Part shown: one piece after another, positions 5,246-36,372 of the stretch | Numbering within the stretch: position 1 is the first letter of the stretch | Layout: every line of letters starts with the position of its first letter | From: Candidatus Woesearchaeota archaeon | GTDB lineage: Archaea; Nanobdellota; Nanobdellia; Pacearchaeales; GW2011-AR1 | Assembly (NCBI GenBank): GCA_964581415.1 | Contig: CAZOOJ010000001.1 | Span: 36,096-100,095 of the forward strand | Length of the DNA: 64,000 bases | Reading direction: 5' to 3' | Program-made: the position numbers and the translations under genes | The notes under the pieces: model-generated | The model's input: only the letters and a program-made list of their open reading frames with translations | The model's database searches: none | Told to the model about the DNA's origin: nothing

Positions 5246-6190
5246 ATGATAATAATAAATTTTATTTTATTTTTAGTATTTTTAGCAATATTAATCAAAT
5301 GTGCAGCATATGCTATTAAATATTCTTCAAATGTATCAAGAGCTCTAGGACTTCCTGAATTTATAGTAAGTTTTTTTATAGTAGCTTTGATCTCAGTACT
5401 TCCAGAACTAATGATTTCAATAGTGTCTGCTATTCAAGGAAATCCTGAATTAGGTTTTGGAACTCTATTGGGTTCAAATATAGCAGATTTAACTCTAATC
5501 TTTGGAATAGTTGCATTATTCTCTTATAAAGGCATAAAAGTTAAGAGTAAAGTTTTAGAAAATCATTTTTATTATCTTATTTTATTATTGTTTCCTCTAA
5601 TTCTTGGTTTTGATGGAAGATTCTCAAGAGTAGATGGTATAATATTAATTTTGTTAGGTTTATTCTTTCTCGGAAAAATATATCTTGATAGAAACAGATT
5701 TCATAAAAAATCAAATAAAAGAAGAAAACCTTTTCTTAAAAGCTTATTATTATTAATTTTAAGTGTAGGAATAATATTATTTAGTGCATTTCTAACTGTA
5801 AAATTTGCTGTAAATTTTGCATACGATATAAAATTATCAACTGTTTTTATTGGATTAACAATCCTTGCTTTAGGAACCTGCCTACCAGAATTAATTTTTT
5901 CTATAAAAGCTATAAGAAAAAAACATTATGATTTAGCAATAGGAGATATACTTGGAAATGTGCTTATTGATACTACAATAGTGTTAGGATTAGTTGCATT
6001 AATCTCTCCATTTAGTTATAATCCTTATAATATCTATATAATGGGAACCGCATTATTCCTTTCTGGAATTTTCGTAACAATATTTATGAAAACAGGAAAG
6101 TCAATAAATAAGCTTGAAGGAATTTTTTTAATACTCTTCTATATTCTTTTTGTTTTTGCTGAATTTTTCCTAAACAATCTTCTAAATTAA
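5246..6190 (+). CDS. Ca2+/cation antiporter family (CaCA, YrbG-like) membrane protein
   Basis: Multi-TM protein with two alpha-repeat motifs, GNPELGFGTLLGSNIADLTLIFG and GDILGNVLIDTTIVLG. Confidence 0.7.
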   Translation: MIIINFILFLVFLAILIKCAAYAIKYSSNVSRALGLPEFIVSFFIVALISVLPELMISIVSAIQGNPELGFGTLLGSNIADLTLIFGIVALFSYKGIKVKSKVLENHFYYLILLLFPLILGFDGRFSRVDGIILILLGLFFLGKIYLDRNRFHKKSNKRRKPFLKSLLLLILSVGIILFSAFLTVKFAVNFAYDIKLSTVFIGLTILALGTCLPELIFSIKAIRKKHYDLAIGDILGNVLIDTTIVLGLVALISPFSYNPYNIYIMGTALFLSGIFVTIFMKTGKSINKLEGIFLILFYILFVFAEFFLNNLLN

Positions 6191-7346: not shown

Positions 7347-8081
7347 TTATTTAAACTTTTTTAAAACTATTTTATTTAATTCTTCAGGTCCTTTAACTAA
7401 AAAAGATTTGTCTGTAGATTTAAATAAAGGAAAATCATTTTTTGAATCCCCAAAAGAAAATGTCTTTATTTTTTTATTCTGTTTTTTAAACATTCTTATT
7501 AAAATTTTAGCAGCTTTTCCTTTGTCATTATCTCCTAAAAGATGGAAATAATTTCCTCCTTCAGTATAATTGAAACCTCTTCTTTTAATTTCTTTTACTA
7601 TTTTGTTTTTATCTTTTTTATTTTCTATTTTAAAAACCACATCGTATTCTCTTTTTTTTGCAAGTTTTGCTTCTTTTAAACTCAAACCTATCTGATTTGA
7701 AATTTCTTTAGCAGACATTTTATAAAAAGAAGTGACTTTAAATTTTTTATTGATATTTTTCATAATTTTAACTAATTTTTTATATGGAGTTCCTAATTCA
7801 ATTATAGAATAATTATCTCTTTTCTTTGATTTGAATTTAAAATCAAAATAATCTTTAGGAATAAAAATTGCTCCTCCATTTTCTGAAATAAAAGGTTCTT
7901 TATTTTTCATTTTTTTTCTATAGACTTCTATTTCTGCTCTGGTTTTGCTTGAGATTAATATTAAAGGAATTTTTTTATTTTTAAGAAGTTCTATTGCTTT
8001 TTTAGATTTTAAAAAGCTATAATTTTTATCAATGAGTGTTCCGTCTAAATCGCTGAATATCACCTCTTTAATTTTTTCCAT
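7347..8081 (-). CDS. HAD-IIB phosphatase, mannosyl/glucosyl-3-phosphoglycerate phosphatase-like (MpgP/YedP family)
   Basis: Motif I FSDLDGTLID and motif IV FGDSKNDFPLF. The size and spacing are typical of Cof/MpgP-type HAD-IIB enzymes. Confidence 0.55.
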   Translation of the reverse strand: MEKIKEVIFSDLDGTLIDKNYSFLKSKKAIELLKNKKIPLILISSKTRAEIEVYRKKMKNKEPFISENGGAIFIPKDYFDFKFKSKKRDNYSIIELGTPYKKLVKIMKNINKKFKVTSFYKMSAKEISNQIGLSLKEAKLAKKREYDVVFKIENKKDKNKIVKEIKRRGFNYTEGGNYFHLLGDNDKGKAAKILIRMFKKQNKKIKTFSFGDSKNDFPLFKSTDKSFLVKGPEELNKIVLKKFK

Positions 8082-8126
8082 ATTAAAACTTAGAAATCTT
8101 TATTTTAATAATTTTCTGAATTGAAA

Positions 8127-17886: not shown

Positions 17887-18324
17887 ATGAACTGTCCATA
17901 CTGTGGAAGCAAAAATTTAAGAGTAACTAATAAAAGAGATTCTCCTGAAGGAATAAGAAGAAGAAGAGAATGCATAAAATGTAAAAAAAGATTTACAACT
18001 TACGAAAAGCCTGTAAAAGAAGAATTATGTATAATAAAAAAAGACAAGAGAAGAGAAAAGTTTAATAGAGAAAAATTAGAAGAAGGTATAAAAAAAGCAT
18101 TTGAAAAGCGTCCAATATCAAAAGAAAAGGTTGAAAAGATGATAAATTTAATTGAAGAACAAATTAGAAGAAGAGGAAGCAGAGAAATAGAAAGCTCAAA
18201 AATTGGTGAGTTAGTAATGAAAAAAATAAAAAAATTAGATAATGTTGCTTATATAAGATTTGCGTCTGTATATAGAGATTTTCAGGATATTAAAGATTTT
18301 AAAAAAGAATTAAGAGGAATGTAA
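17887..18324 (+). CDS. nrdR: Transcriptional repressor NrdR (zinc ribbon + ATP-cone)
   Basis: MNCPYCGS…RRRRECIKCKKRFTTYE matches the NrdR zinc-ribbon signature and is followed by an ATP-cone. The start is set at the internal MNCPYCGS. Its stop abuts the nrdD start. Confidence 0.75.
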   Translation: MNCPYCGSKNLRVTNKRDSPEGIRRRRECIKCKKRFTTYEKPVKEELCIIKKDKRREKFNREKLEEGIKKAFEKRPISKEKVEKMINLIEEQIRRRGSREIESSKIGELVMKKIKKLDNVAYIRFASVYRDFQDIKDFKKELRGM

Positions 18325-21300
18325 ATGGTAAATAAAATCAGAAAAAGAGATGGTAGTGTTGTTCTATTCAATCAAGATAAAATTACAGAAGCTATTTGGA
18401 AAGCTGTAAAATTTGTTGGAGGAAAAGATAAAGAAAAATCAAAATATTTATCAGATTTAATTCTAAAAAAATTAGAAGAGAAACATGGAAATTTAGGAAT
18501 ACCTGAAGTAGAAGAAGTGCAGGATTTGGTTGAAAAAATCCTTATTGAAGAAGGACATGCAAAAGTTGCAAAATCTTATATTTTATACAGAAAAAGTCGT
18601 GAAGAATTAAGAAATGTAAAAGGACTTTTTGATACTATTGAAGCTGTTGAAGATTATATTGGATTAAATGATTGGATGGTTAAAGAAAATTCAAATATGG
18701 GTTTTTCTCTGCAAGGACTTAATAATTACATATCTACAAAAATAGTAAGTAATTACTGGATGAGAAGAATTTATCCTGAAGCTATAAGAAATGCGCATGA
18801 AACAGGAAATTTACATATTCATGATTTGGGAATTTTAGGAGTCTATTGTGTAGGATGGGATTTGAAAGATTTGTTGTTAGTAGGATTTAAAGGAGTTAAA
18901 GGAAAAGTTGCATCAAAACCTCCAAAACATCTTAGAACAGCTTTAGGACAAATTATAAATTTCTTTTATACTCTGCAAGGAGAATCAGCAGGAGCACAAG
19001 CATTTTCTAATTTTGATACTCTATTAGCACCTTTCATAAGATATGATGCTCTGGATTATAAAGAAATAAAACAGTGTATGCAAGAATTTTTATTTAATCT
19101 TGCTGTTCCTACAAGAGTTGGATTCCAATGTATATCTGAAGATACAGAAATTTTAACTCCTAAGGGTTGGAAAGGATACTCGAAATTAGAAAAAGGAGAT
19201 ATAATTAAAACTTTTAATCTTAATAAAGGAAAAATAGAAAATCAAAAAATTAAAAGATTATTTAAGAAGCATTACACAGGAGAAATGTATAACTTAAAAA
19301 ATAGGATTCAGGATCAGTTAATTTCACCAAAACATAGAGTAGTTAGAAGGAGATTTAATTCAAAAGAATATGTTTTAGAAGAGATAGAGAGTATTAAGAA
19401 AAGAAAGGCTCCCCTCATAATTCCTATAACTGGAGGAAATACAAACAAAAAACAAAATATATCTAATGAGATGATAAAACTTCTTGCATGGATAATTGCA
19501 GAAGGAACTTCAGAACATTCAGGACAAAAACACAGGCAGTCTAGAAGAATTACAATTTATCAATCTAAATTAAAAAAACCAAAAGAGTACAAAGAAATAA
19601 TTAATCTCCTTAAAAAGATTAGATTAGATTATTCTGAAAGAGATTCATCACCTTCTTTAGGAAATTCTATTAAAATGATTAAATTAAATGCAAAGTCCTC
19701 AAAAAAAATTCATGACTTATTTGAAGATGATGAAAGAATTGACTTTATTCCTGAAAAATTATTGAACATGAATAAAGAGCAATCAAAATTATTTTTAGAA
19801 ATTTTCATAAAAGCAGATGGATTTGAAAAGTGTAAGATTGCAACAACAAATAAAAGTATTTTAGATGGATTACAGCAAATAGCTGTAAATGCAGAATATG
19901 GTTTCACTGTATTAGAAAAAGAACCAACAATTGGAAAAAAGATTATTTATGTTCTAAGATTAATAAAACATAAAGAAACCTATATCCAAAAAATAGAAAA
20001 GATAAATTATTCTGGAACAATTTGGTGTCCAAACACTGACAATGAAACAGTAATTGCTCGTCGTAATGGAAAAGTTTTTATCACAGGCAATACTCCATTT
20101 ACGAATATAACTATGGACTTAAAAGTTCCTTCTTATATGAAAGATGAAGCTATAATCATAGGAGGAATTCCACAAAAAGAGACCTATAAAGAATTTCAGC
20201 GTGAAATGAATCTGTTAAATAAAGCATTTGCTGAGATTATGATAGAAGGAGATTCTGAAGGAAGAGTCTTCACTTTTCCTATTCCTACTTATAATATCAC
20301 AAAAGATTTTGATTGGGAAAATCCTGAATATGATATGCTTTGGGAAATGACAGCTAAATATGGAATTCCTTATTTTTCCAATTTTATAAATTCAGATATG
20401 AATCCAGAAGATGCAAGAAGCATGTGTTGCAGACTCAGATTAGATCAGACAGAATTAAGAAAAAGAGGTGGAGGTTTATTTGGAGCCAATCCTTTAACTG
20501 GAAGTATAGGAGTAGTAACAATTAATATACCAAGATTAGGTTTTACTTCAAGAGATGAAGAAGATTTTTTTAACAAATTAGAAGATTTAATGGAACTTGC
20601 AAAAGAAAGTTTAGAAATAAAAAGAAAAAATCTTGAAAAACTTACAGAAAGAGGACTTTATCCTTATTCTAAATTCTATTTAAGAAATATTAATAAGAGA
20701 TTTGGAGAGTATTGGAAAAATCATTTTGCTACTATAGGTTTATTAGGAATGAATGAAGGTATAATGAATTTTATGCCTGGAGAAGATATAGGAACTGAAA
20801 GAGGAAAAGAATTTTCAGTAAAAGTCTTAGATTTTATGAGAAAAAAACTTGAAGAATATCAAAATGAAACAGGAAATATTTATAATTTAGAAGCAACTCC
20901 TGGAGAAGGAACCACATACAGATTTGCAAGAATTGACAAAAAGAGATTTGGAAGGATAATTACTGCAAATGAAAGAGCAGTAAGAAATGAAAAAGCTCCT
21001 CCTTATTACACAAATTCAACACAACTTCCTGTTAATTATACAACAGATTTATTTGAAGCTCTGGAATTACAGGATCCTTTACAAACAAGATATACTGGAG
21101 GAACAGTTTTTCATTCATTTGTCGGAGAAAGACTAAATAAGGAAGGAATAAAAAAATTAGTTAGAAAAATCTCTGAAAATTTCAGTCTGCCTTATTTTAC
21201 AATATCGCCTGTTTTTTCAGTTTGTCCGATTCATGGTTATATTGCAGGAGAGCATTTTTATTGCCCTAAATGCGATGCTGAGCATGGAATTGTAAGAAAT

Positions 21301-21357
21301 TCAGAAGGAAAAATTATCAGAAGAGAAAATGAAAAGAACATTCAAATAAAAAATTAA
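18325..21357 (+). CDS. nrdD: Anaerobic ribonucleoside-triphosphate reductase NrdD (class III RNR), interrupted in frame by an intein. This ORF lacks the glycyl-radical C-terminal motif.
   Basis: N-terminal ATP-cone and NrdD core blocks. A C-terminal Cys/His cluster CPIHGY…CPKCD is present. No RxxGY glycyl-radical motif occurs before the stop. Confidence 0.8.
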   Translation: MVNKIRKRDGSVVLFNQDKITEAIWKAVKFVGGKDKEKSKYLSDLILKKLEEKHGNLGIPEVEEVQDLVEKILIEEGHAKVAKSYILYRKSREELRNVKGLFDTIEAVEDYIGLNDWMVKENSNMGFSLQGLNNYISTKIVSNYWMRRIYPEAIRNAHETGNLHIHDLGILGVYCVGWDLKDLLLVGFKGVKGKVASKPPKHLRTALGQIINFFYTLQGESAGAQAFSNFDTLLAPFIRYDALDYKEIKQCMQEFLFNLAVPTRVGFQCISEDTEILTPKGWKGYSKLEKGDIIKTFNLNKGKIENQKIKRLFKKHYTGEMYNLKNRIQDQLISPKHRVVRRRFNSKEYVLEEIESIKKRKAPLIIPITGGNTNKKQNISNEMIKLLAWIIAEGTSEHSGQKHRQSRRITIYQSKLKKPKEYKEIINLLKKIRLDYSERDSSPSLGNSIKMIKLNAKSSKKIHDLFEDDERIDFIPEKLLNMNKEQSKLFLEIFIKADGFEKCKIATTNKSILDGLQQIAVNAEYGFTVLEKEPTIGKKIIYVLRLIKHKETYIQKIEKINYSGTIWCPNTDNETVIARRNGKVFITGNTPFTNITMDLKVPSYMKDEAIIIGGIPQKETYKEFQREMNLLNKAFAEIMIEGDSEGRVFTFPIPTYNITKDFDWENPEYDMLWEMTAKYGIPYFSNFINSDMNPEDARSMCCRLRLDQTELRKRGGGLFGANPLTGSIGVVTINIPRLGFTSRDEEDFFNKLEDLMELAKESLEIKRKNLEKLTERGLYPYSKFYLRNINKRFGEYWKNHFATIGLLGMNEGIMNFMPGEDIGTERGKEFSVKVLDFMRKKLEEYQNETGNIYNLEATPGEGTTYRFARIDKKRFGRIITANERAVRNEKAPPYYTNSTQLPVNYTTDLFEALELQDPLQTRYTGGTVFHSFVGERLNKEGIKKLVRKISENFSLPYFTISPVFSVCPIHGYIAGEHFYCPKCDAEHGIVRNSEGKIIRRENEKNIQIKN
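19129..20091 (+). mobile_element. Intein (321 aa) with a LAGLIDADG homing-endonuclease domain inside nrdD
   Basis: Begins with Cys in …VGFQ|CISEDTEILTP (Hint block A) and ends …KVFITGN|T (terminal Asn, +1 Thr). It contains LAGLIDADG-type motifs LLAWIIAEGTSE and LFLEIFIKADGFE. Confidence 0.75.
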
Positions 21358-21385
21358 ATAAAAAAATTGAAATGAAAATTTAAAA

Positions 21386-21586
21386 ATGGAAAAAGAAAAT
21401 CAAGAAATTAAAGAACAAGGAAATGAAAAAGCCGGAATTGAAAATACAAAAGAAAATAAAGAAGAATTTAATGGAAGTGAATGTGAAGTTTATTCCAGAG
21501 TTGTAGGATATCTAAGACCTATCAGCCAATGGAATGAAGGAAAGGTATCTGAATTCCGAGATAGAAAAAATTTCGAAGTTGCTTAA
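21386..21586 (+). CDS. Separate small ORF encoding the class III RNR glycyl-radical domain (NrdD C-terminal fragment)
   Basis: …CEVYSRVVGYLRPISQWNEGKVSEFRDRKNF aligns with the NrdD C-terminus (E. coli …RRVCGYLGSP…NAGKQEEVKRRV). It is preceded by a K/E/N-rich linker. The reading frame differs from nrdD and the two are separated by stop codons. Confidence 0.6.
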   Translation: MEKENQEIKEQGNEKAGIENTKENKEEFNGSECEVYSRVVGYLRPISQWNEGKVSEFRDRKNFEVA

Positions 21587-21604: not shown

Positions 21605-22303
21605 ATGAAAATCTGCGGACTTCAAAAAACAACTTTGGTAGATTATCCAAAAAAAATAGCATGTACAATATTTATTTATGGATGTAATTTCAGATGTGGT
21701 TTTTGTCATAACCCTGAATTAGTTACTGAAAAAAATGAGAATATTTTTTCTGAAAAAGAAATTTTGGACTTTTTAGAAAAGAGAAAAAAATATTTAGAAG
21801 GTATCTGCATAACAGGAGGAGAACCTTTATTAACTTTAGAAAAGAATTTTTTAAGAGAAATAAAAAAACTTGGATACTTAATAAAAATTGATACAAATGG
21901 AAGTTTTCCTGAAAAACTTAAAGAAATAATTGATGAGGAGCTTGTAGATTTTGTTGCAATGGACATAAAATCTAGTAAGGAGAGATATAAAGAATTTATA
22001 AATGCAGATATTAATTTAGAAAAAATTGAAGAAAGTATAAGATTGATTTCAAAACTGGAAGATTATGAATTTAGAACCACAGTAATTGAGAATATGCATG
22101 ATTTGGAAGAAATGAAGAAAATTTCTAAATGGCTTAATAGTCTTATAGGAAAACCTAAAAAATATTCTCTTCAAGCATTTAAGAATAGTGGAAAAGTTTT
22201 AGATGAGAAATTTAAATACAAAAAAGACACTAGTGAAAAATTCATAAAAGAAATTAAGGAAGAGATAAAAGACAGCTTTGAAGATATTGAAACAAGATTT
22301 TAA
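21605..22303 (+). CDS. nrdG: Anaerobic RNR activating enzyme NrdG (radical SAM)
   Basis: CNFRCGFCHN CxxxCxxC radical-SAM motif near the N-terminus; ~230 aa. Confidence 0.85.
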   Translation: MKICGLQKTTLVDYPKKIACTIFIYGCNFRCGFCHNPELVTEKNENIFSEKEILDFLEKRKKYLEGICITGGEPLLTLEKNFLREIKKLGYLIKIDTNGSFPEKLKEIIDEELVDFVAMDIKSSKERYKEFINADINLEKIEESIRLISKLEDYEFRTTVIENMHDLEEMKKISKWLNSLIGKPKKYSLQAFKNSGKVLDEKFKYKKDTSEKFIKEIKEEIKDSFEDIETRF

Positions 22304-22336: not shown

Positions 22337-22660
22337 ATGATAAATAATGATAAAATTCCTGAATTAACAGACAATGAATTTAATGATTTTGTGAAACAAG
22401 GAGTTGTTTTTATTAATTTTTTTAAAGAATGGAACATGTCTTGTCTTACGATGTCTCCGATATTAGAAGAAATAAGTGATAAATTCAAAAAGATAAAATT
22501 TGGAAAAATTGATATTGGAGAAAATCGAAATATTGCAAGAAAATTAGGCATTTTTTCAATTCCTGCTTTTTTTGTTTTTAAAAATGGAGAAATTATAGAA
22601 AAATTTGTTGGAATAGTTTCTGGAGAAGAAGTTGAAGAAAAGTTAAAGAATTTAGAATAA
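22337..22660 (+). CDS. Thioredoxin-fold protein with a degenerate active site (WNMSC instead of WCxPC)
   Basis: Clear paralog of the 11889 thioredoxin (FFKEWNMSCLTMSPILEEI vs FWAEWCMPCLILGPILEKI). The N-terminal active-site Cys is replaced by Asn. Confidence 0.55.
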   Translation: MINNDKIPELTDNEFNDFVKQGVVFINFFKEWNMSCLTMSPILEEISDKFKKIKFGKIDIGENRNIARKLGIFSIPAFFVFKNGEIIEKFVGIVSGEEVEEKLKNLE

Positions 22661-22995: not shown

Positions 22996-23481
22996 TTAAT
23001 TTTCTACTTGCTCAAAAGAAGCCATTTTAGTAAGAAATTCTCTTAATTCCCCATATAATTCTAAATGTTGTTTGTTTAACTCTATCCAGTGAGGTATTGA
23101 AGATTCCAATCTGGTAATCCCCTTCAAATCTTTAGGATATATATTGTGAGCAAAAATATCTCTTATTTTATAAAATTTTATCAATTTATTTTTAAAATCT
23201 TTATTTGTTTTTAACTCTTCTTTATTATGTTGGTTAACCTCGTTAATAATTTCTAATAATAAATTTGCTCTTGAACTTGCACCAAAATTTACTAAAAAGA
23301 ATTCATTAAATCTGAATATTTTACTTAAATTAAGGGGCTTCCAATTATCTTTTTCTTCTCCAAATTTTAAATCTAATCCAAAAGATTTTCTTATAATTTT
23401 ATTAGAAATATTGTCTATATCAATAGTCCTCATAATAACCTCATGCAATAATTCTTTGGGTAATTCAAATGGATTTTCCAT
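22996..23481 (-). CDS. Hypothetical protein (161 aa) directly downstream of, and overlapping, the transposase gene
   Basis: ORF only; possible passenger gene of the IS. Confidence 0.3.
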   Translation of the reverse strand: MENPFELPKELLHEVIMRTIDIDNISNKIIRKSFGLDLKFGEEKDNWKPLNLSKIFRFNEFFLVNFGASSRANLLLEIINEVNQHNKEELKTNKDFKNKLIKFYKIRDIFAHNIYPKDLKGITRLESSIPHWIELNKQHLELYGELREFLTKMASFEQVEN

Positions 23482-24506
23482 TATATTCTAATAGGTTCCT
23501 CTAATTTAAAGTTTGCTTTAATTCCAAGTTCACAGATTTCCTGAATCACAACACAAATGTTGTGACATAAAACTTTAACCAATAATTCATTAAATTGTGC
23601 GGTTTCTTTTTTACTTTTAATATGACTTCCGAATTTAGTTTTAATCATATGAAAACAAGTTTCAGAATTGCTCCTTTTATGATAGTGTGATAAAAATTCA
23701 ATTTGATTAAACATAAAGAAATGATACATCTTCTTCCAAATCTGAGAACCAGCCTTTTTTCCTGTTACGTTTTTCTTAAATGGAATATAGGGTGTTGCTC
23801 CAAAATCATTTATTACCTCGAAATTCTCCCTACTCAAATACGCTTTATCTCCACTTACTTCAGATATTTTGAAATTTTCTGCTGTTTTTTTAACAAGTCC
23901 TTTTAATTGTGGGCTATCTGCTTTATTCCCTTCAGTAATATTAACTCCTGTTATAATGTTGGTTTTAATACCGGAAAGAAGATGAGCTTTTAACCAGATT
24001 TTATATCTCCTTTCTTTGCCCCATTTATAATCAAACCATCTTGCAAATCGTGAAGTAGAAAATCCAGAAGAATCTATTGTGAAATCAGCTTCAACTTCTT
24101 TAAGAGGTAAGGAACTAATTATAATGAGTTGTTCTAAAATTGTCTTAACCTCTGGTTTGTTCATAAAGTTTGATAATGAAGAATAACAAGGAACCTTGTA
24201 GACTAACCCAAATTCTTTTGCTATTTTCATATCAGACATAAAACGCCTTAAAGAAAATCCTGTATAGATTTTCATAACAGAACCAAAGAGCATGTCATTA
24301 AAAGGCAAAGTTGGTCTACCAAATTTATAAAGAGGTTGTTCAATATTATCACATAAATCCTTAAGCAACTTCATAAAGAGTAATTTCTCGTTTGTTTGTG
24401 CTTTGTTGTATGCTGTCCATTCTTGACTATATTTTTTATTCTCCGTTAACTTTTTATATAACCATTCCTTTTCTTTTATGGATTCAAATTGTGCTTCGCG
24501 GTGCAT
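23481..24506 (-). CDS. DDE transposase (IS4/IS5-superfamily, DDE_Tnp_1-like)
   Basis: Spaced acidic residues in TIDSSGF… / …SGDKAYLS… / …SNSETCFHMIKTKFG, the D-D-E plus K/R pattern of IS4/IS5-type transposases. It sits next to the tRNA-Lys 3' end. Confidence 0.55.
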   Translation of the reverse strand: MHREAQFESIKEKEWLYKKLTENKKYSQEWTAYNKAQTNEKLLFMKLLKDLCDNIEQPLYKFGRPTLPFNDMLFGSVMKIYTGFSLRRFMSDMKIAKEFGLVYKVPCYSSLSNFMNKPEVKTILEQLIIISSLPLKEVEADFTIDSSGFSTSRFARWFDYKWGKERRYKIWLKAHLLSGIKTNIITGVNITEGNKADSPQLKGLVKKTAENFKISEVSGDKAYLSRENFEVINDFGATPYIPFKKNVTGKKAGSQIWKKMYHFFMFNQIEFLSHYHKRSNSETCFHMIKTKFGSHIKSKKETAQFNELLVKVLCHNICVVIQEICELGIKANFKLEEPIRI

Positions 24507-26604: not shown

Positions 26605-29277
26605 ATGGATAAAGAAAGTGCAAAATTAGAAGTAGAAGAAATAGTTAGAAAATTTCTCTCTATCCCAAAAAACGAAAGGGATTCTATGCCTGAAGAAAAA
26701 ATAAAGAGTTGGTTTATTGAACCACTATTTGAGGCATTAGGTTGGAATAGGTATGATATGTCTAAAGAAGAAAGGATTTTGAAAGGTAGAGCTGATTATG
26801 TTGTTAGAATAGGAAATCAAGATAAATTAGTAATAGAAGCAAAGAAAACAAATGTTGGATTAAATGAAGAAGAGGGAAGACAAGCTGTTTCTTATGCTCA
26901 CCATAAGAATATCAAGTTTGCAGTTTTAACCAACTTCGCAAGAATAAGGGTTTTTCATGCATTATCAAATATCAAAAATATTGATAAAAATTTATTGAAA
27001 GATAAGACCGACTATTTAAGATTTAATTGTGAGGATTTTGTTAAGGATTTTGATAGATTATGGTTGTTATCAAGAGAGAGTTTTGAGCAAGGAGAAATAA
27101 ACAAACTCCTTGAGAATGTTGATAAAAAACTAATAAAACCTATCGATGAATCAATATTAACAGACTTACTTCAGTATAGAGAATGGCTATCTAAAGATTT
27201 GAAAAGCAAAAGAAGTTATTTAGAAGATTCTCAAATTGATGAGGTTGTTCAGATTTTGATTGATAGATTAATCTTTATGCGTTCTGTTGAGGATAGGGGC
27301 TTAGAAGCAAAAGATTTCTTATTAAAGATTATTAATGATGTTGAAAAAGGTTTTACAGATATGAATCTTTGGGCAGTGTTAAAAGCACAATTCCAAAGAT
27401 TTGATAAAACTTACAACTCAAAATTATTTCAAGATGGAATATTAGAAAAAGAGGGGTTTTTTGATAATAGGGTTCTTGTCAAAGTTATCAAAGGATTATA
27501 TTATGGAACTCAAGACCATCAAGAGAGATATATGTTTGATGAGATTCCTGTTGATTTATTGGGAAGTATCTATGAACAATATTTAGGGATTGTTTTAAGA
27601 GGAACAGAAAAGAGAGTTAAATTAGATTTGTTAAGTAAAAAAAGAAAAAAGATGGGAATATATTATACTCCCTCTTATATTGTGGATTATATTGTAAAAA
27701 ATACAATAGGAGAATATATTAAAAATAAATCTATTGATGAAATTTTAGATATTAAGGTTATAGACCCTGCGTGTGGTTCTGGTTCTTTTTTGATTAGAGC
27801 ATTTCAAGAATTAATAAACATAATTGAAGAGAGATTAAAAAATGGTGAGAAATCTAAAAAATATCAAAATACTTTCAAAGAATGGAAAGGGAAGTTAAGT
27901 TTAGGAGAGAAAACAACAATTTTAACTAATTGTATTTATGGTGTTGATTTGGATGAAAAAGCAGTTGAGTTAGCACAACTTAATTTATTGTTAAAGATAT
28001 TAGAAGAAGAAACAAGAGAAACAAGAAAAAGAGTTTTGCCTACTATGAAGGATAATATCAAGAATGGAAATAGTTTAATCTCTGATTCTCGTTTTGATAA
28101 GGCGTTTAATTGGAATGCTCAATTTCCCAAGATAAAAGAAGGGGGTTTTGATATTGTTATTGGAAATCCACCATATGTTGACTACTCTAAAATCAAAGGA
28201 ACAGATTATTTTAATAAAATTTATGAAAGTTCTAAAGTTAATAATAATGTTGTAAAATATAATTTATTCCAGTTATTCATTGAGAAATCTATAAGACTCT
28301 TAAAGGAAGGTGGAATGTTTGGGTTTATCAATCCAAATACATATTTATCAACTCAAAATGCATTTGCATTGAGGAAATTAATATTAGAAGAAACATCTTT
28401 AAAGAAGATAATTGATGTTTCACATTTAAGAGTTTTCAAAGACGCTTCGACTTATCCTGTAATAACTATTTTCAAAAATGGGAAAGAGAAAAAAAATAAG
28501 TTGGGTGTTGCTGTTATTGATGACGAAAAAGATTTAGTAGAAGAATTAAAATTAAATGAAATAAACCAAGAAGAGTTTGAAAAAGATAAAAAACTTAATT
28601 TTATGATTAGTTCAAACGAAGAAAATAAAGAGATTATGAGAAAGTTAGATTCTTGCGATAAACTAAAAGATTATCAAGAAACTTTTGTTTGGGGTTCTTC
28701 TATTACAGGATTTGCAAAACATAAAGCAAAAGAAAAAGAGAAAGATAAAAAATATTCTCCTGTAATTCAGACAAGAGATATAAAAAAATATTGCATAGAA
28801 TGGAAGGAAGAATATATTGAAAATAAAATTTATTCAGATAAATTAAAAGAATTATTTAAGAAGAAAAAACTTGTTATAGCAAGAGTTACAAAGGGCGTTC
28901 AAGCGACTATTGATAATAAAGGTTATTATGTTGGAAAATCTTCTATTTTAATTCCAAAAGATAAAGATTTATTTGAAATTCTTTTAGCCATCATCAATTC
29001 TAAACTTATTAACTATTATTATAAAATGAAATTTGAAACAACACATATGGCTGGGGGTTACATAAGATTTGATATTCCTTATTTAAAACTATTACCTATT
29101 AAATTGCCTGATGAAAAACAGGCAGAGAAGATAAAAGAATTAGTTAAGAGAATGATGGAATTATGCGAAAAGAAAGACGAGCAACAAATTAAAAATGTTG
29201 ATTATGAAATTAATGAAGAAATTTACAAATTATATGAAATTACAGGTAAGGAAAAGGAAGTTATAGAAAAATCTTAA
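26605..29277 (+). CDS. Type IIG/IIL restriction-modification enzyme (fused PD-(D/E)xK endonuclease, gamma-class N6-adenine methyltransferase and target-recognition domain; MmeI/Eco57I-like)
   Basis: N-terminal nuclease motif …GRADYVVRIGNQDKLVIEAKK (D…ExK). SAM motif I VIDPACGSGSFLI and catalytic motif IV IGNPPYVDY. A long C-terminal TRD-sized region follows. Total 890 aa. Confidence 0.75.
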   Translation: MDKESAKLEVEEIVRKFLSIPKNERDSMPEEKIKSWFIEPLFEALGWNRYDMSKEERILKGRADYVVRIGNQDKLVIEAKKTNVGLNEEEGRQAVSYAHHKNIKFAVLTNFARIRVFHALSNIKNIDKNLLKDKTDYLRFNCEDFVKDFDRLWLLSRESFEQGEINKLLENVDKKLIKPIDESILTDLLQYREWLSKDLKSKRSYLEDSQIDEVVQILIDRLIFMRSVEDRGLEAKDFLLKIINDVEKGFTDMNLWAVLKAQFQRFDKTYNSKLFQDGILEKEGFFDNRVLVKVIKGLYYGTQDHQERYMFDEIPVDLLGSIYEQYLGIVLRGTEKRVKLDLLSKKRKKMGIYYTPSYIVDYIVKNTIGEYIKNKSIDEILDIKVIDPACGSGSFLIRAFQELINIIEERLKNGEKSKKYQNTFKEWKGKLSLGEKTTILTNCIYGVDLDEKAVELAQLNLLLKILEEETRETRKRVLPTMKDNIKNGNSLISDSRFDKAFNWNAQFPKIKEGGFDIVIGNPPYVDYSKIKGTDYFNKIYESSKVNNNVVKYNLFQLFIEKSIRLLKEGGMFGFINPNTYLSTQNAFALRKLILEETSLKKIIDVSHLRVFKDASTYPVITIFKNGKEKKNKLGVAVIDDEKDLVEELKLNEINQEEFEKDKKLNFMISSNEENKEIMRKLDSCDKLKDYQETFVWGSSITGFAKHKAKEKEKDKKYSPVIQTRDIKKYCIEWKEEYIENKIYSDKLKELFKKKKLVIARVTKGVQATIDNKGYYVGKSSILIPKDKDLFEILLAIINSKLINYYYKMKFETTHMAGGYIRFDIPYLKLLPIKLPDEKQAEKIKELVKRMMELCEKKDEQQIKNVDYEINEEIYKLYEITGKEKEVIEKS

Positions 29278-32886: not shown

Positions 32887-35800
32887 ATGGCTCAGGAAAT
32901 AATTCGTAAAAAAATTGGAGAAGTGGGATTTACTTTAATTAATCCTGAACAGATTAAAAAATTATCAGCTGCAAAGATTGTAACTCCAGAACTCTATAAT
33001 ATAGATGGTTATCCTGTTGACGGAGGATTAATGGATTTGCGATTAGGAGTAATTGACCCTGGACTAAGGTGCAGAACTTGCGGAGGAAGATTAAAAGAAT
33101 GTCTAGGACATCCAGGAAGTATAGATTTAGCAAGACCAGTAATTCATCTTAAATATGTTCCTCTAATTGAATTAGGATTGAGATGTTTTTGTAAAGAATG
33201 TGGAAAGCTTATGCTTTCAGATAAAGATTTAGAAAAATATTTCCCAAGTGAAAGAGCAAAAAAGGCAAAAGATTCAAAAAAATGTCCTCATTGTGGAGCT
33301 CTTCAAGATAAAATTAAAATAATGAAACCAACAAGTTTTTATGTAGGAAAAATGAGACTTTTTCCAACTCAGATAAGAGAAAAACTCGTTAATATTCCTG
33401 ATGAAGAACTTAAAAAAATAGGAATAAACGCAAAAAGTTGCAGACCTGAATGGGCTATTTTAACTTCTCTTTTAGTTCCTCCTGTAACTATCCGTCCAAG
33501 CATTATTTTAGAAAGTGGAGAGAGAAGCGAAGATGACTTAACACATAAACTCTCTGATATAATAAGAGCAAATCAGAGATTATGGGAAAATCTTAATGCA
33601 GGAGCTCCTGAAGTGATTATTGAAGATTTATGGGATTTATTACAATTTCATATTACAACTTTTTTTGATAATGCTGTTACGAGAATTCCTCCAGCAAGAC
33701 ATAGAAGCGGACAACCATTGAAGACAATAACAGAAAGAATTAAAGGAAAAGAAGGAAGAATTCGAAAAAATTTAGCAGGAAAAAGAGTAAATTATTCTGC
33801 AAGAACTGTAATCTCTCCAGATACTCATATAGAAATAAATGAGGTAGGAGTTCCTTATGAAATAGCAAAGATAGTTACAGTCTCTGAAACAGTTAATGAT
33901 ATTAATATCAAAAAACTAAAAGAGTTAATAAAAAGAGGGCAGAATTATCCTGGTGCGAATTATATAATAAGGCCAGACGGAAAAAGAAAAAAAATAACAT
34001 CAGATCTCAAAGAAGAAATCATAAGCGAACTTTCTCCAGATTACAAAGTTGAAAGGCATCTACAAGAAGGAGATGTTGTTTTATTTAATCGTCATCCTTC
34101 TTTACATCGTGGAAGTCTCATGGCTCATTTTGTAAAAATTCTTCCGGGAAGAACTTTTAGATTACATCCTGCTGTATGCACTTCTTATAACGCTGATTTT
34201 GATGGTGACGAAATGAATATACATTCTCCACAAACAGAAGAAGCAAGAACTGAAGCAAAAATTCTTCTAGATGTTAAAAATAATTTAATGTCTCCAAAAA
34301 ATAATGTAAATTTAATAGGAAATATAAAAGACAGCATAACTGGAGGTTATCTTCTTGGAATTAATGAATTTTCAAAAGAAGAAGCAGACCAAATATTATA
34401 TCATTCAGGAATAGATTATAATATCTCAAAAAAGAGTGTATCTGGATTAGAAATTTTTTCAAGTATTCTTCCAAAAATAAATTTTTCAAACAAAACAATA
34501 GAAATAAAAGAAGGAAAGATTATAAAAGGAATAATAAACAAAAGTTTATTTGGAGTAGAGGAAGGAGAATTCATCAAAGAACTCGATAAGAAATTTGGCA
34601 GAAACAAAACATTTGATATAATAAAGAAAGCATTTGATTTAGGAACAAATTATATTTCTGATAGAGGCATGACAATAGCTTTAGAAGATTTTGATTTGGA
34701 CGAATCTGTGATTAAAGAAGGAGAAAAAATTATAAAAGAATCTGAGAAAAAAACAGAAGAAGTTATTAAATCTTATGAAGAAAGCACTATAAATGTTATT
34801 CCTGGAAAAACTGCAGAAGAATCAAGAGAAATAAAGATTCTAAAAATATTAAATGAAGTAAGAACAAAAATTGGAGATATAGTTAAAGAAAAATTTCCTA
34901 AAGAAAATCCTGTTAGTCATATGATGGCTTCTGGAGGCGGAGGAAAAATTTTGAATATAACGCAGATGGCTAATTGTGTTGGGCAACAACAATTAGGAGG
35001 AAGAAGAATTGATTTTGGTTATACTAATAGAACATTATCTTTTTTTAGAAAAGGGGATTTGTCTCCAAAATCAAGAGGATTTATATATAGTTCATTTATA
35101 AAAGGTTTAAGACCTGATGAATTTTTCTTTGGAGCTGTAACTGGAAGAGATTCTTTAATGGATACTGCACTAAGAACTCCAAAATCAGGATATCTATACA
35201 GAAGGCTATCAAATGCTCTTCAGGATTTGAGAGTTGAATATGATAGAACAGTAAGAAATAGTAACAATGGTGTAATACAATTTAAATATGGAGAGGATGA
35301 ATTAGATGTTTCAGAACTTCATACTCAAAGCAAAATAGAGCCTGGAAGTGCTATAGGAATATTGACAGCACAATCTTTTGGAGAACCTTCAACACAGATG
35401 ATTATGAGAACTTTTCATATGGCTGGTGTTGCTGAAATGCAGGTAACTATGGGGCTTCCAAGACTTATAGAAATTTTTGATGCAAGAAAAAAACCTTCTT
35501 CTCCAAAAATGGAGATTTATCTTAATAAAGAATATGATAATGAAAAAGATGCAAAGGTATTTGCTGAAAGAATAAAGGAAGTTCCTTTAAAAGATATTGC
35601 AGATGAAATTAATATAAATTTCGGTGATAGAAAAATAGAGATTAAAATAAATAAAAAAGCATTAAAAAGAGTGCATATAGGTATAGATAAAATTTTAGAA
35701 AAATTACAAAATTCTGGTTTTAAAATAAAAGAAAAAGAGAACACAATAACTATTAATACAGGAAAACTTGACTTTAAACAAATTTATAAATTAAAAGAAA

Positions 35801-36372
35801 AACTCAAAAAAACTGTAATCTCAGGAATTAAAGGAATAGAACAAATTTTAGTTGTAAAAAAAGAAAATAATTTTATTATTATGACTTTAGGAACAAATTT
35901 GGAAGAGACTATGAAATTTAAAGAGGTTAATAAAAATAAAATAACCTCAAATGATTTGCATGAAGTTGCTGAAGTTTTTGGAATAGAAGCAGCAAGGCAT
36001 TCAATAATCAATGAGGTTAAAGATGTTCTAAAAACTCAGGGATTGGATGTTGATATGAGGCATCTTAAACTTATATCAGATGCTATGACAAATACAGGAG
36101 AAGTTAAAGGAGTTACAAGAATGGGTATTATTGCTCAAAAATCTTCAATATTAGCAAAAGCAACTTTTGAAACACCTGTAAAACAATTTGTTAATTCTAC
36201 ATTAAAAGGAAGCAAAGACAATCTTTCAAGTGTCATAGAAAATATAATTGTCAATCAGCCTGTTCCTGTTGGAACAGGATTGCCAGGATTGTTAGTTAAG
36301 GTAATAGGGCCTTTAAGCACGAAAAATAAAAAAATCGCAGAGAAAAAAATAGTAGAAGAAGTTAATAGATGA
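32887..36372 (+). CDS. rpoA: DNA-directed RNA polymerase subunit A as a single fused A'+A'' polypeptide (1161 aa)
   Basis: N-terminal zinc motifs, NADFDGDEMN catalytic loop, bridge helix …DTALRTPKSGYLYRRL…, and then, continuous in the same ORF, the trigger-loop region …AQSFGEPSTQMIMRTFHMAGVA… that is normally in A''. Confidence 0.85.
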   Translation: MAQEIIRKKIGEVGFTLINPEQIKKLSAAKIVTPELYNIDGYPVDGGLMDLRLGVIDPGLRCRTCGGRLKECLGHPGSIDLARPVIHLKYVPLIELGLRCFCKECGKLMLSDKDLEKYFPSERAKKAKDSKKCPHCGALQDKIKIMKPTSFYVGKMRLFPTQIREKLVNIPDEELKKIGINAKSCRPEWAILTSLLVPPVTIRPSIILESGERSEDDLTHKLSDIIRANQRLWENLNAGAPEVIIEDLWDLLQFHITTFFDNAVTRIPPARHRSGQPLKTITERIKGKEGRIRKNLAGKRVNYSARTVISPDTHIEINEVGVPYEIAKIVTVSETVNDINIKKLKELIKRGQNYPGANYIIRPDGKRKKITSDLKEEIISELSPDYKVERHLQEGDVVLFNRHPSLHRGSLMAHFVKILPGRTFRLHPAVCTSYNADFDGDEMNIHSPQTEEARTEAKILLDVKNNLMSPKNNVNLIGNIKDSITGGYLLGINEFSKEEADQILYHSGIDYNISKKSVSGLEIFSSILPKINFSNKTIEIKEGKIIKGIINKSLFGVEEGEFIKELDKKFGRNKTFDIIKKAFDLGTNYISDRGMTIALEDFDLDESVIKEGEKIIKESEKKTEEVIKSYEESTINVIPGKTAEESREIKILKILNEVRTKIGDIVKEKFPKENPVSHMMASGGGGKILNITQMANCVGQQQLGGRRIDFGYTNRTLSFFRKGDLSPKSRGFIYSSFIKGLRPDEFFFGAVTGRDSLMDTALRTPKSGYLYRRLSNALQDLRVEYDRTVRNSNNGVIQFKYGEDELDVSELHTQSKIEPGSAIGILTAQSFGEPSTQMIMRTFHMAGVAEMQVTMGLPRLIEIFDARKKPSSPKMEIYLNKEYDNEKDAKVFAERIKEVPLKDIADEININFGDRKIEIKINKKALKRVHIGIDKILEKLQNSGFKIKEKENTITINTGKLDFKQIYKLKEKLKKTVISGIKGIEQILVVKKENNFIIMTLGTNLEETMKFKEVNKNKITSNDLHEVAEVFGIEAARHSIINEVKDVLKTQGLDVDMRHLKLISDAMTNTGEVKGVTRMGIIAQKSSILAKATFETPVKQFVNSTLKGSKDNLSSVIENIIVNQPVPVGTGLPGLLVKVIGPLSTKNKKIAEKKIVEEVNR

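Follow-up and report, generated by a model that had tools for sequence, protein, structure and literature searches.

Class III ribonucleotide reductase (RNR), like other glycyl-radical enzymes, is described with its radical glycine on the catalytic chain, and to our knowledge GrcA/YfiD, which serves pyruvate formate-lyase (PFL), is the only known trans-acting radical domain. How, then, should one read a class III reductase gene that ends before the radical loop, with the loop encoded on a 66-residue open reading frame (ORF) just downstream? This question is raised by the nrdD locus in a 64,000-nucleotide (nt) stretch of DNA, hereafter the window, from a Candidatus Woesearchaeota archaeon (GenBank assembly GCA_964581415.1, contig CAZOOJ010000001.1, positions 36,096 to 100,095), and the possible answers range from an assembly error to an enzyme made of two chains. 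The evidence assembled here makes it very probable that the locus specifies a class III RNR of a DPANN-type archaeon that is split by nature into two polypeptides, both obligate; the mini-protein would be a required subunit rather than a spare because the core lacks a radical glycine.

Core and radical loop on separate reading frames

The large ORF (18325 to 21357, forward strand) encodes a precursor of 1010 residues, a length explained by a 321-residue intein whose removal leaves a mature core of 689 residues. It scores far above the cutoffs of the NrdD models, with 579.7 bits against PF13597 (cutoff 26.2; E 8.6e-174), 1011 bits against NCBIfam NF006126 (cutoff 548) and 491.6 bits against TIGR02487 (cutoff 326); its best NCBIfam models are all NrdD, and class II RNR models match the ATP-cone only. 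The core possesses the ATP-cone that forms the allosteric activity site (residues 4 to 93, 18334 to 18603, forward strand; PF03477, E 6.4e-19), the 10-stranded barrel, the finger loop SMCCRLRLD and a zinc ribbon (CPIHGYIAGEHFYCPKC, 21223 to 21273, forward strand), and it keeps all of the invariant core residues of our alignment (A2). The zinc site, CPIH...CPKC at residues 967 to 983, was read from the sequence and from the same alignment, in which C218, H221, C231 and C234 are invariant, and it aligns with the CxxC...CxxC zinc site of P. copri NrdD. Just past this ribbon the ORF ends as ...CPIHGYIAGEHFYCPKCDAEHGIVRNSEGKIIRRENEKNIQIKN* with a TAA stop, its last segment being a K/E/N-rich, lineage-specific tail (DAEHGIVRNSEGKIIRRENEKNIQIKN; 21274 to 21357 including the stop, forward strand) that holds no RVxGY motif.

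Between this stop and the small ORF lies an A-rich intergenic spacer of 28 nt (21358 to 21385), flanked by stops in each of the three frames. The small ORF (21386 to 21586, forward strand) opens with its own ATG in a different frame and reads MEKENQEIKEQGNEKAGIENTKENKEEFNGSECEVYSRVVGYLRPISQWNEGKVSEFRDRKNFEVA, that is, an acidic, K-rich N-terminal extension (residues 1 to 32) followed by a conserved core, CEVYSRVVGYLRPISQWNEGKVSEFRDRKNF. This core holds the glycyl-radical loop SRVVGYLRP, with the codon of Gly41 at 21506 to 21508. The two ORFs partition the NRDD family model PF13597 between them, the large one reaching position 530 of 562 and the small one covering positions 531 to 562 (E 1.2e-9, 37.8 bits against the cutoff of 26.2, and its sole Pfam match), and NF006126 is divided between them in the same way. 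A preliminary description of this DNA, made from the letters alone, had placed the radical loop on a 66-residue ORF lying 28 nt beyond, and in another frame from, an NrdD ORF that ends without the motif, and the partition of both family models bears this out. The glycyl-radical domain of PFL (Gly_radical, PF01228) gave no match to the mini-protein in the Pfam scan. As a separate candidate, the IGY and HGI triplets that follow CPKCD on the core were considered as a cryptic radical site and rejected, being absent in split relatives (L020, L021, L023, L025 and L032) and corresponding to the EAEG linker of fused forms.

Fused relatives indicate where the chain was divided. In these, the zinc ribbon reads ...CPxHGYxxGxHxxCPxC and is followed by 3 to 10 residues and then by (C/T)EVYSRVVGYLRP..., as exemplified by a Paceibacterota NrdD (CPKCAIEQPCEVYSRVVGY). 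Judged from such comparisons, the break point is the short linker between zinc ribbon and radical loop and the event is old, with the core tail and the N-terminal extension of the mini-protein being low-complexity additions at the former linker. In solved NrdD structures, the radical domain is highly mobile and semi-independent, behaving as a semi-rigid body (PMC11226230).

Conservation and distribution of the split

The preliminary description had offered, as one explanation, a recent A-rich insertion that introduced a stop and a frameshift, and this explanation does not survive comparison. Five other assemblies, each from a different sample (JGI 3300077563, JGI 3300077562, SRR2986055, SRR2989655 and SRR1179181), carry the 371-nt junction with 100% identity. 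Stops lie at 21347, 21359 and 21368 in the frame of the small ORF and at 21355 and 21373 in that of the large ORF, so that no one indel in the A-rich tract can fuse the two and at least two changes would be needed to restore one continuous frame. The identical junctions together with this stop layout rule out sequencing or assembly error. Two further candidates were rejected, namely an alternative genetic code, as each of the three stop codons (TAA, TGA and TAG) is in use at ORF ends in the window and nrdD itself stops at TAA, and an intron or homing-endonuclease insertion at the junction, as the spacer measures just 28 nt and the mobile element of this gene is the intein further upstream.

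The same split is found throughout the closest relatives. When the intein-free core was compared with its 120 best full-length relatives (76-86% identity), 117 of these proved to stop shortly after the zinc ribbon without RVxGY and 3 to be fused, and the truncated form is therefore the standard enzyme of this clade; the alignment of homologues that the preliminary description called for thus finds the split conserved, and a fresh lesion in one genome is not what it shows. An independent search with the C-terminal 261 residues returned ~90 truncated and ~29 fused forms among 120. Extending the view to 185k species-representative genomes (one per species), we could classify 70 nrdD loci, of which 53 are fused, 16 are truncated with downstream sequence available, and one (L034) sits on a contig that ends just past the stop. 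A separate radical-loop ORF of 40 to 70 residues was present within ~750 nt at every evaluable truncated locus (16/16). These 16 include all seven of the closest DPANN loci, in which the mini-ORF lies between nrdD and nrdG and the spacers run from -89 to +17 nt, and the other loci that pair a truncated nrdD with a mini-ORF come from Falkowbacteria, Micrarchaeota, a gammaproteobacterial metagenome-assembled genome (MAG), Elusimicrobium (two loci), Acetothermia and an unclassified bacterium.

Both the spacing and the gene order vary across this set. Spacers across relatives range from -89 to +187 nt and occur in all frames, and the order becomes nrdD, nrdG, mini-ORF in Synergistales, Aminobacterium and a Bacillota MAG, which excludes frameshifting and readthrough in Synergistales and Bacillota. 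The nrdG of Aminobacterium overlaps the stop of nrdD, a strong Shine-Dalgarno sequence (AAGGGGG) stands ahead of the mini-ORF, and 192 blocks of the collection list the mini-protein. Closer to the window, two relatives from other samples with 85-86% identity (L099 and L100) keep the nrdD stop position after ...NIQIKN, as do the tails of P0379-P0385, while their spacers measure 3 and 6 nt against 28 nt in the window and bring both pairs of ORFs into frame. Their mini-ORFs (62 and 69 residues) again combine an acidic N-terminal extension with the same core, and both ORFs are intact in each; the junction drifts, and the two ORFs persist.

Over the 28-codon core of the mini-ORF in eight DPANN loci, the pooled proportion of nonsynonymous differences (pN) was 0.19 against a saturated synonymous proportion (pS) of 0.83, and the ratio of nonsynonymous to synonymous substitution rates (dN/dS) was ~0.1-0.3 where calculable; the mini-ORF is under purifying selection. 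The pattern YSRVVG..P..N.GK..E...R is invariant across 20 free-standing homologues. In a rough neighbour-joining tree of the cores, the DPANN split forms make up one clade, a second split clade holds members of the candidate phyla radiation (CPR), Synergistota and Bacillota, and the split forms of Elusimicrobium and Acetothermia branch within the fused ones, a topology that, approximate as it is, suggests at least three origins of the split. As far as these comparisons reach, the split is the norm in this clade and recurs elsewhere as a conserved, selected arrangement, present with other gaps, frames and gene orders than those of the window.

Proposed assembly in trans and competing explanations

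From these features we infer that the small ORF is translated independently and that its product assembles in trans with the core and is activated by NrdG. In the mechanism that we propose, the NrdD core, with its ATP-cone, barrel, cysteine finger loop and zinc ribbon, would mature by intein splicing, and the co-transcribed 66-residue protein would supply the radical loop in trans. NrdG would abstract hydrogen from Gly41, probably on the free or loosely tethered peptide, a form that should be more accessible to the activase. The radical-bearing beta-hairpin would then enter the core barrel as the attached loop does in fused NrdDs, and its radical would pass to the finger-loop cysteine to give a thiyl radical. 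Oxygen cuts the chain of glycyl-radical enzymes at the radical glycine (PMC13450708), and repair here could consist of swapping a ~7.7-kDa peptide rather than a ~80-kDa, intein-containing protein, which makes cheap repair a plausible advantage of a detachable peptide.

A structure model fits this proposal. AlphaFold2, run on the intein-free core concatenated to the mini-protein with an alignment of truncated, fused and mini-protein homologues, gave a mean predicted local distance difference test score (pLDDT) of 83 and a predicted template modelling score (pTM) of 0.77. The loop was modelled at pLDDT ~85 as a beta-hairpin (strands 723-728 and 731-734) that has glycine 730 at its tip and leads into a short helix, and the low-confidence parts were the added linker (~690-720) and the finger loop (384-403). 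Foldseek returned NrdD structures as the best matches to the model (8P2C, 9D3X, 4U3E and 1H7A), and the model is consistent with canonical docking. A search of the PDB with the concatenated low-complexity junction as query found no match, and a fused relative was used as query instead.

Several points weigh against an obligate two-chain enzyme. The model is not independent evidence of docking, with the chain artificially joined and fused homologues in the alignment, and the mini-protein product and its assembly in trans are predictions from sequence. The view covers 64 kb of the genome, and a second full-length nrdD or an RNR of another class may lie elsewhere. In L099 and L100, where the ORFs are in frame with one TAA between them, low-level readthrough could conceivably yield a fused chain. 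The mini-ORF has no recognisable ribosome-binding site in front of it, and neither do the other genes of the operon.

Two features of the tails touch on how such subunits might meet. Truncated cores with long tails (P0168, P0191, P0195, P0198, P0199, P0204, P0220, P0222, P0230; P0144, P0147, P0149, P0153) end at the extreme C-terminus in one of two conserved motifs, (E/D)R(N/D)IIxAIA or GGDxxGE(D/N), and these may be docking peptides. At the two Elusimicrobium loci (L049, ~5340-5730; L090, ~7690-8098), both the core tail KAQKIEDIEKQIALLEEQLYSK and the N-terminus of the mini-protein MTTQERQNIETKISELKAARAEVKG look like heptad-repeat helices, which hints at a coiled-coil tether between the subunits.

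Could the mini-protein instead serve solely to repair a full-length NrdD encoded elsewhere, with the truncated core being a decaying or regulatory paralogue? Such a role would be in keeping with the free-standing radical-domain proteins found beside full-length NrdDs in some CPR bacteria, with the orphan copies found in bacteria and phages, and with the small part of the genome in view. A paralogue of this kind is hard to reconcile, however, with a truncated core that has every invariant core residue and reaches 1011 bits on the NrdD equivalog model, or with truncation in 117 of the 120 closest relatives, and the window mini-protein lacks a zinc ribbon, as do the partners of truncated cores (16/16), whereas the spares carry one (7/7). 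DPANN genomes are small, which makes a second RNR unlikely, and altogether we consider an exclusive spare-part role improbable. Where the preliminary description had suggested a stand-alone domain of the GrcA/YfiD kind, the stand-alone form is thus upheld, but the spare-part role does not suit a core that has no glycine of its own. Translational recoding, in which frameshift, readthrough or ribosomal bypass unites the ORFs into a conventional NrdD chain, seems to us improbable as well. The two ORFs lie side by side on one strand, those of L099 and L100 are separated in frame by one TAA, and the AAT before the nrdD stop forms a formal take-off and landing pair with another AAT at 21371 that opens the downstream frame; AAT is, however, very common at 27% GC, so that this pair carries no significance, and three stops just upstream of the ATG in the target frame and two in the source frame leave no open path. 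The variable spacers of the relatives, in all frames, and the position of nrdG between the ORFs in Synergistales and Bacillota argue against recoding too, as does the presence of an individual start codon in nearly every mini-ORF (~130 Met and ~9 alternative starts among the best 150 representatives of the profile search described below).

That an error or a recent mutation broke nrdD and left the small ORF as a meaningless remnant would find some footing in the A-rich, low-complexity junction, which is prone to indels, and in the poor conservation of the tail and the N-terminal extension. Comparative data already refute this explanation, which we hold to be very improbable: besides the reproducible junction and the two or more changes that fusion would take, relatives at 85% identity stop at the same position, purifying selection acts on the mini-ORF, and distant lineages have the same architecture. 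Finally, the core tail and the mini-protein N-terminus might be the halves of a split intein that joins the chains by protein trans-splicing, an idea that the conventional intein already hosted by this nrdD brings to mind and to which we assign next to no probability. The 27-residue tail and the 32-residue extension fall far below the size of split-intein halves (~100 residues for an N-intein, ~35 for a C-intein), in relatives the tail shrinks to 8-9 and the extension to 4-8 residues without conservation of sequence, and neither segment has intein block motifs or intein matches in Pfam or NCBIfam.

The wider mini-protein family, the operon and their significance

Free-standing homologues of the mini-protein extend well beyond truncated nrdD loci. 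Searched exhaustively with an HMMER profile, 1.84 billion cluster representatives yielded 5066 matches (2887 at E<=1e-10) and hundreds of free-standing homologues, with 149 of the best 150 representatives being 42-115 residues long and the Met-initiated ones among them having N-termini unrelated to NrdD. One group, which we call the spare type, comprises proteins of 81-95 residues with their own zinc ribbon and radical loop, encoded between a fused full-length nrdD and nrdG in Paceibacterota, Moranbacteria and related MAGs (L012, 5001-5288; L035, L040, L043, L070, L080 and L085); the ribbon is found in 7 of 7 of these and in 0 of 16 partners of truncated cores. Other copies are orphans that lie far from any nrdD in bacteria and archaea. 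On viral contigs from IMG/VR (L101-L180), 64 of the 80 best loci have the mini-gene with neither an NrdD core nor nrdG within 4 kb, including one 1.5 kb from an SU10-type major capsid gene (L172:3797-4129) and one adjoining a Mu-F-like head protein gene (L110:4009-4161), and these viral orphans parallel the GrcA homologue Y06I of phage T4.

By their sequences and settings, the spare-type and orphan proteins look like GrcA analogues for class III RNR. Whether the mini-proteins together form a large, unrecognised family of exchangeable radical cofactors with three modes is, in our estimate, an even call. In such a family, obligate partners would complement genetically truncated NrdD cores, as in the window and most of its DPANN, CPR and Synergistota relatives; zinc-ribbon spares would be encoded beside full-length NrdD; and orphan copies of phages and bacteria would re-arm the host NrdD after oxygen damage or during infection. 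Among the cellular orphans are L011:4501-4851, L017/L018:5001-5141 and a 113-residue form (L014-L016) whose gene sits in varied neighbourhoods with a constant upstream non-coding region of ~400-480 nt, which might contain a regulatory element. Some mini-ORFs are labelled 'anaerobic ribonucleoside-triphosphate reductase' by database pipelines, and mini-ORFs are thus seen by databases but not interpreted.

Compared with canonical NrdD-NrdG systems (T4, E. coli, T. maritima, P. copri and S. thermophilus), the locus shares the barrel, ATP-cone, finger-loop cysteine, zinc ribbon, RVVGY motif and adjacent NrdG, and it differs in that the radical loop and the C-terminal segment that follows it are on a separate polypeptide. 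GrcA/YfiD and Y06I are likewise small and free-standing, with a disordered N-terminus and a radical segment that acts in trans (PMC13450708), but the mini-protein is homologous to the C-terminus of NrdD (PF13597) rather than to that of PFL, and its partner is genetically truncated, so that its role would be obligatory and not one of rescue; the full-length partner of GrcA has its counterpart at loci of the L012 type. A June 2026 review knows spare-part proteins only for formate-lyases (PMC13450708). The split class II reductase NrdJa/NrdJb of Pseudomonas and Thermus phage phiYS40 also consists of two adjacent ORFs with a C-terminal module on the second (PMC9669993; PMC3653736). This likeness is confined to gene layout (here with a 28-nt spacer on the same strand), since NrdJa/NrdJb is B12-dependent and has no glycyl radical, and its detached part is a zinc-finger-containing, reductant-shuttling C-terminus instead of a radical site. 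Class I RNR offers an analogy only, in that the stable radical of the alpha2-beta2 enzyme likewise resides on a separate smaller subunit and is delivered to the active-site cysteine; the beta subunit, however, is a ferritin-like metalloprotein working by long-range radical transfer, whereas here a 40-70-residue, NrdD-homologous peptide would be inserted in the barrel.

Among phages, nrdD is the RNR gene most often fragmented, with 6 cases attributed to introns and homing endonucleases (PMC3653736), and in Jug phages no RNA splicing was seen between the 230-residue and the terminal 91-residue nrdD fragments (PMC12880540). Those splits are put down to mobile intervening sequences at varied positions, whereas the present one has no intervening element but a spacer of 28 nt, at a domain boundary conserved across archaea and bacteria. 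Our full-text literature search, with subscription-only papers outside its scope, turned up no account of an NrdD radical domain encoded in trans, nor of the spare-type and orphan copies.

The intein (residues 269-589; 19129 to 20091, forward strand) lies ~1.3 kb upstream of the nrdD/mini-ORF junction and splits nrdD between GFQ and TPFTNITMD, beginning with Cys and ending in GN before a +1 Thr. It was located within the ORF, has weak intein_Nterm and Intein_splicing matches, and carries two LAGLIDADG-like homing-endonuclease motifs. Intein-less relatives read ...VGFQTPFTNITMD... at the insertion site. Because the closest relatives (P0379-P0385; 689-691 residues, 85-86% identical) have no intein, it is a recent acquisition. 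Inteins also occur in relatives P0448, P0452, P0474 and P0498.

The window annotation places the two ORFs in a tight, co-oriented operon of nrdR, nrdD, the 66-residue ORF, nrdG, a thioredoxin-fold gene and tRNA-Lys. The nrdR gene (17887 to 18324, forward strand) encodes a repressor with a zinc ribbon and an ATP-cone (Pfam Zn_ribbon_NrdR 1.6e-15, ATP-cone 2.4e-22; 145 residues in L001/L002), and nrdD starts immediately after its stop; the mechanical ORF begins at TTG 17851, and gene callers take ATG 17887. NrdR is a repressor typical of bacteria, and in this DPANN-type archaeon its gene is the immediate upstream neighbour of nrdD. The nrdR-nrdD layout also occurs in a Patescibacteria locus (L010) and in relative L100, which suggests horizontal transfer at the level of the operon. 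Downstream of the mini-ORF, nrdG (21605 to 22303, forward strand) encodes a radical-SAM activase (TIGR02495 NrdG2 5.5e-57; Radical_SAM 7e-21) with 192 bits on TIGR02495 against a cutoff of 131, an intact NrdG beside the split nrdD.

The thioredoxin-fold gene (22337 to 22660, forward strand; PF00085 1.7e-18) is a possible operon member of uncertain role. In its product, WNMSC stands in the place of the WCGPC active site of thioredoxins, and with Asn instead of the nucleophilic Cys the protein probably does not act as a classical disulfide reductase. The gene is not at the equivalent position in close relatives L099 and L100, and a gene for dCMP deaminase or dihydroorotate dehydrogenase is found at that position in close relatives. 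Just beyond the operon are a DDE transposase (23481-24506, reverse strand) and an Eco57I/MmeI-like combined restriction-modification enzyme (26605-29277, forward strand). The window as a whole has 27% GC, and its closest NrdDs come from Woesearchaeota, Pacearchaeota and Nanoarchaeota. It also encodes archaeal RNA polymerase domains, S7 (203 residues) and EF-2. The largest RNA polymerase subunit is split into A' and A'' in most archaea, and the window holds one 1161-residue ORF (32887-36372, forward strand) with Rpb1 domains 1-5.

For the biology of this family, the split means that a whole NrdD clade apparently works with its radical loop on a separate peptide of 40-70 residues. If confirmed, this would change the annotation of motif-less NrdDs, which could otherwise be scored as inactive, and would offer cheap repair as an explanation of how small-genome anaerobes tolerate oxygen, as well as a natural minimal peptide substrate (~40 residues) for studies of NrdG activation and radical-domain docking. 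Class III would thereby gain a separate radical subunit as class I has, which would bear on models of RNR evolution, and if the three-mode family holds true, the 'spare part' principle of GrcA would extend from formate-lyases to an enzyme that makes the precursors of DNA.

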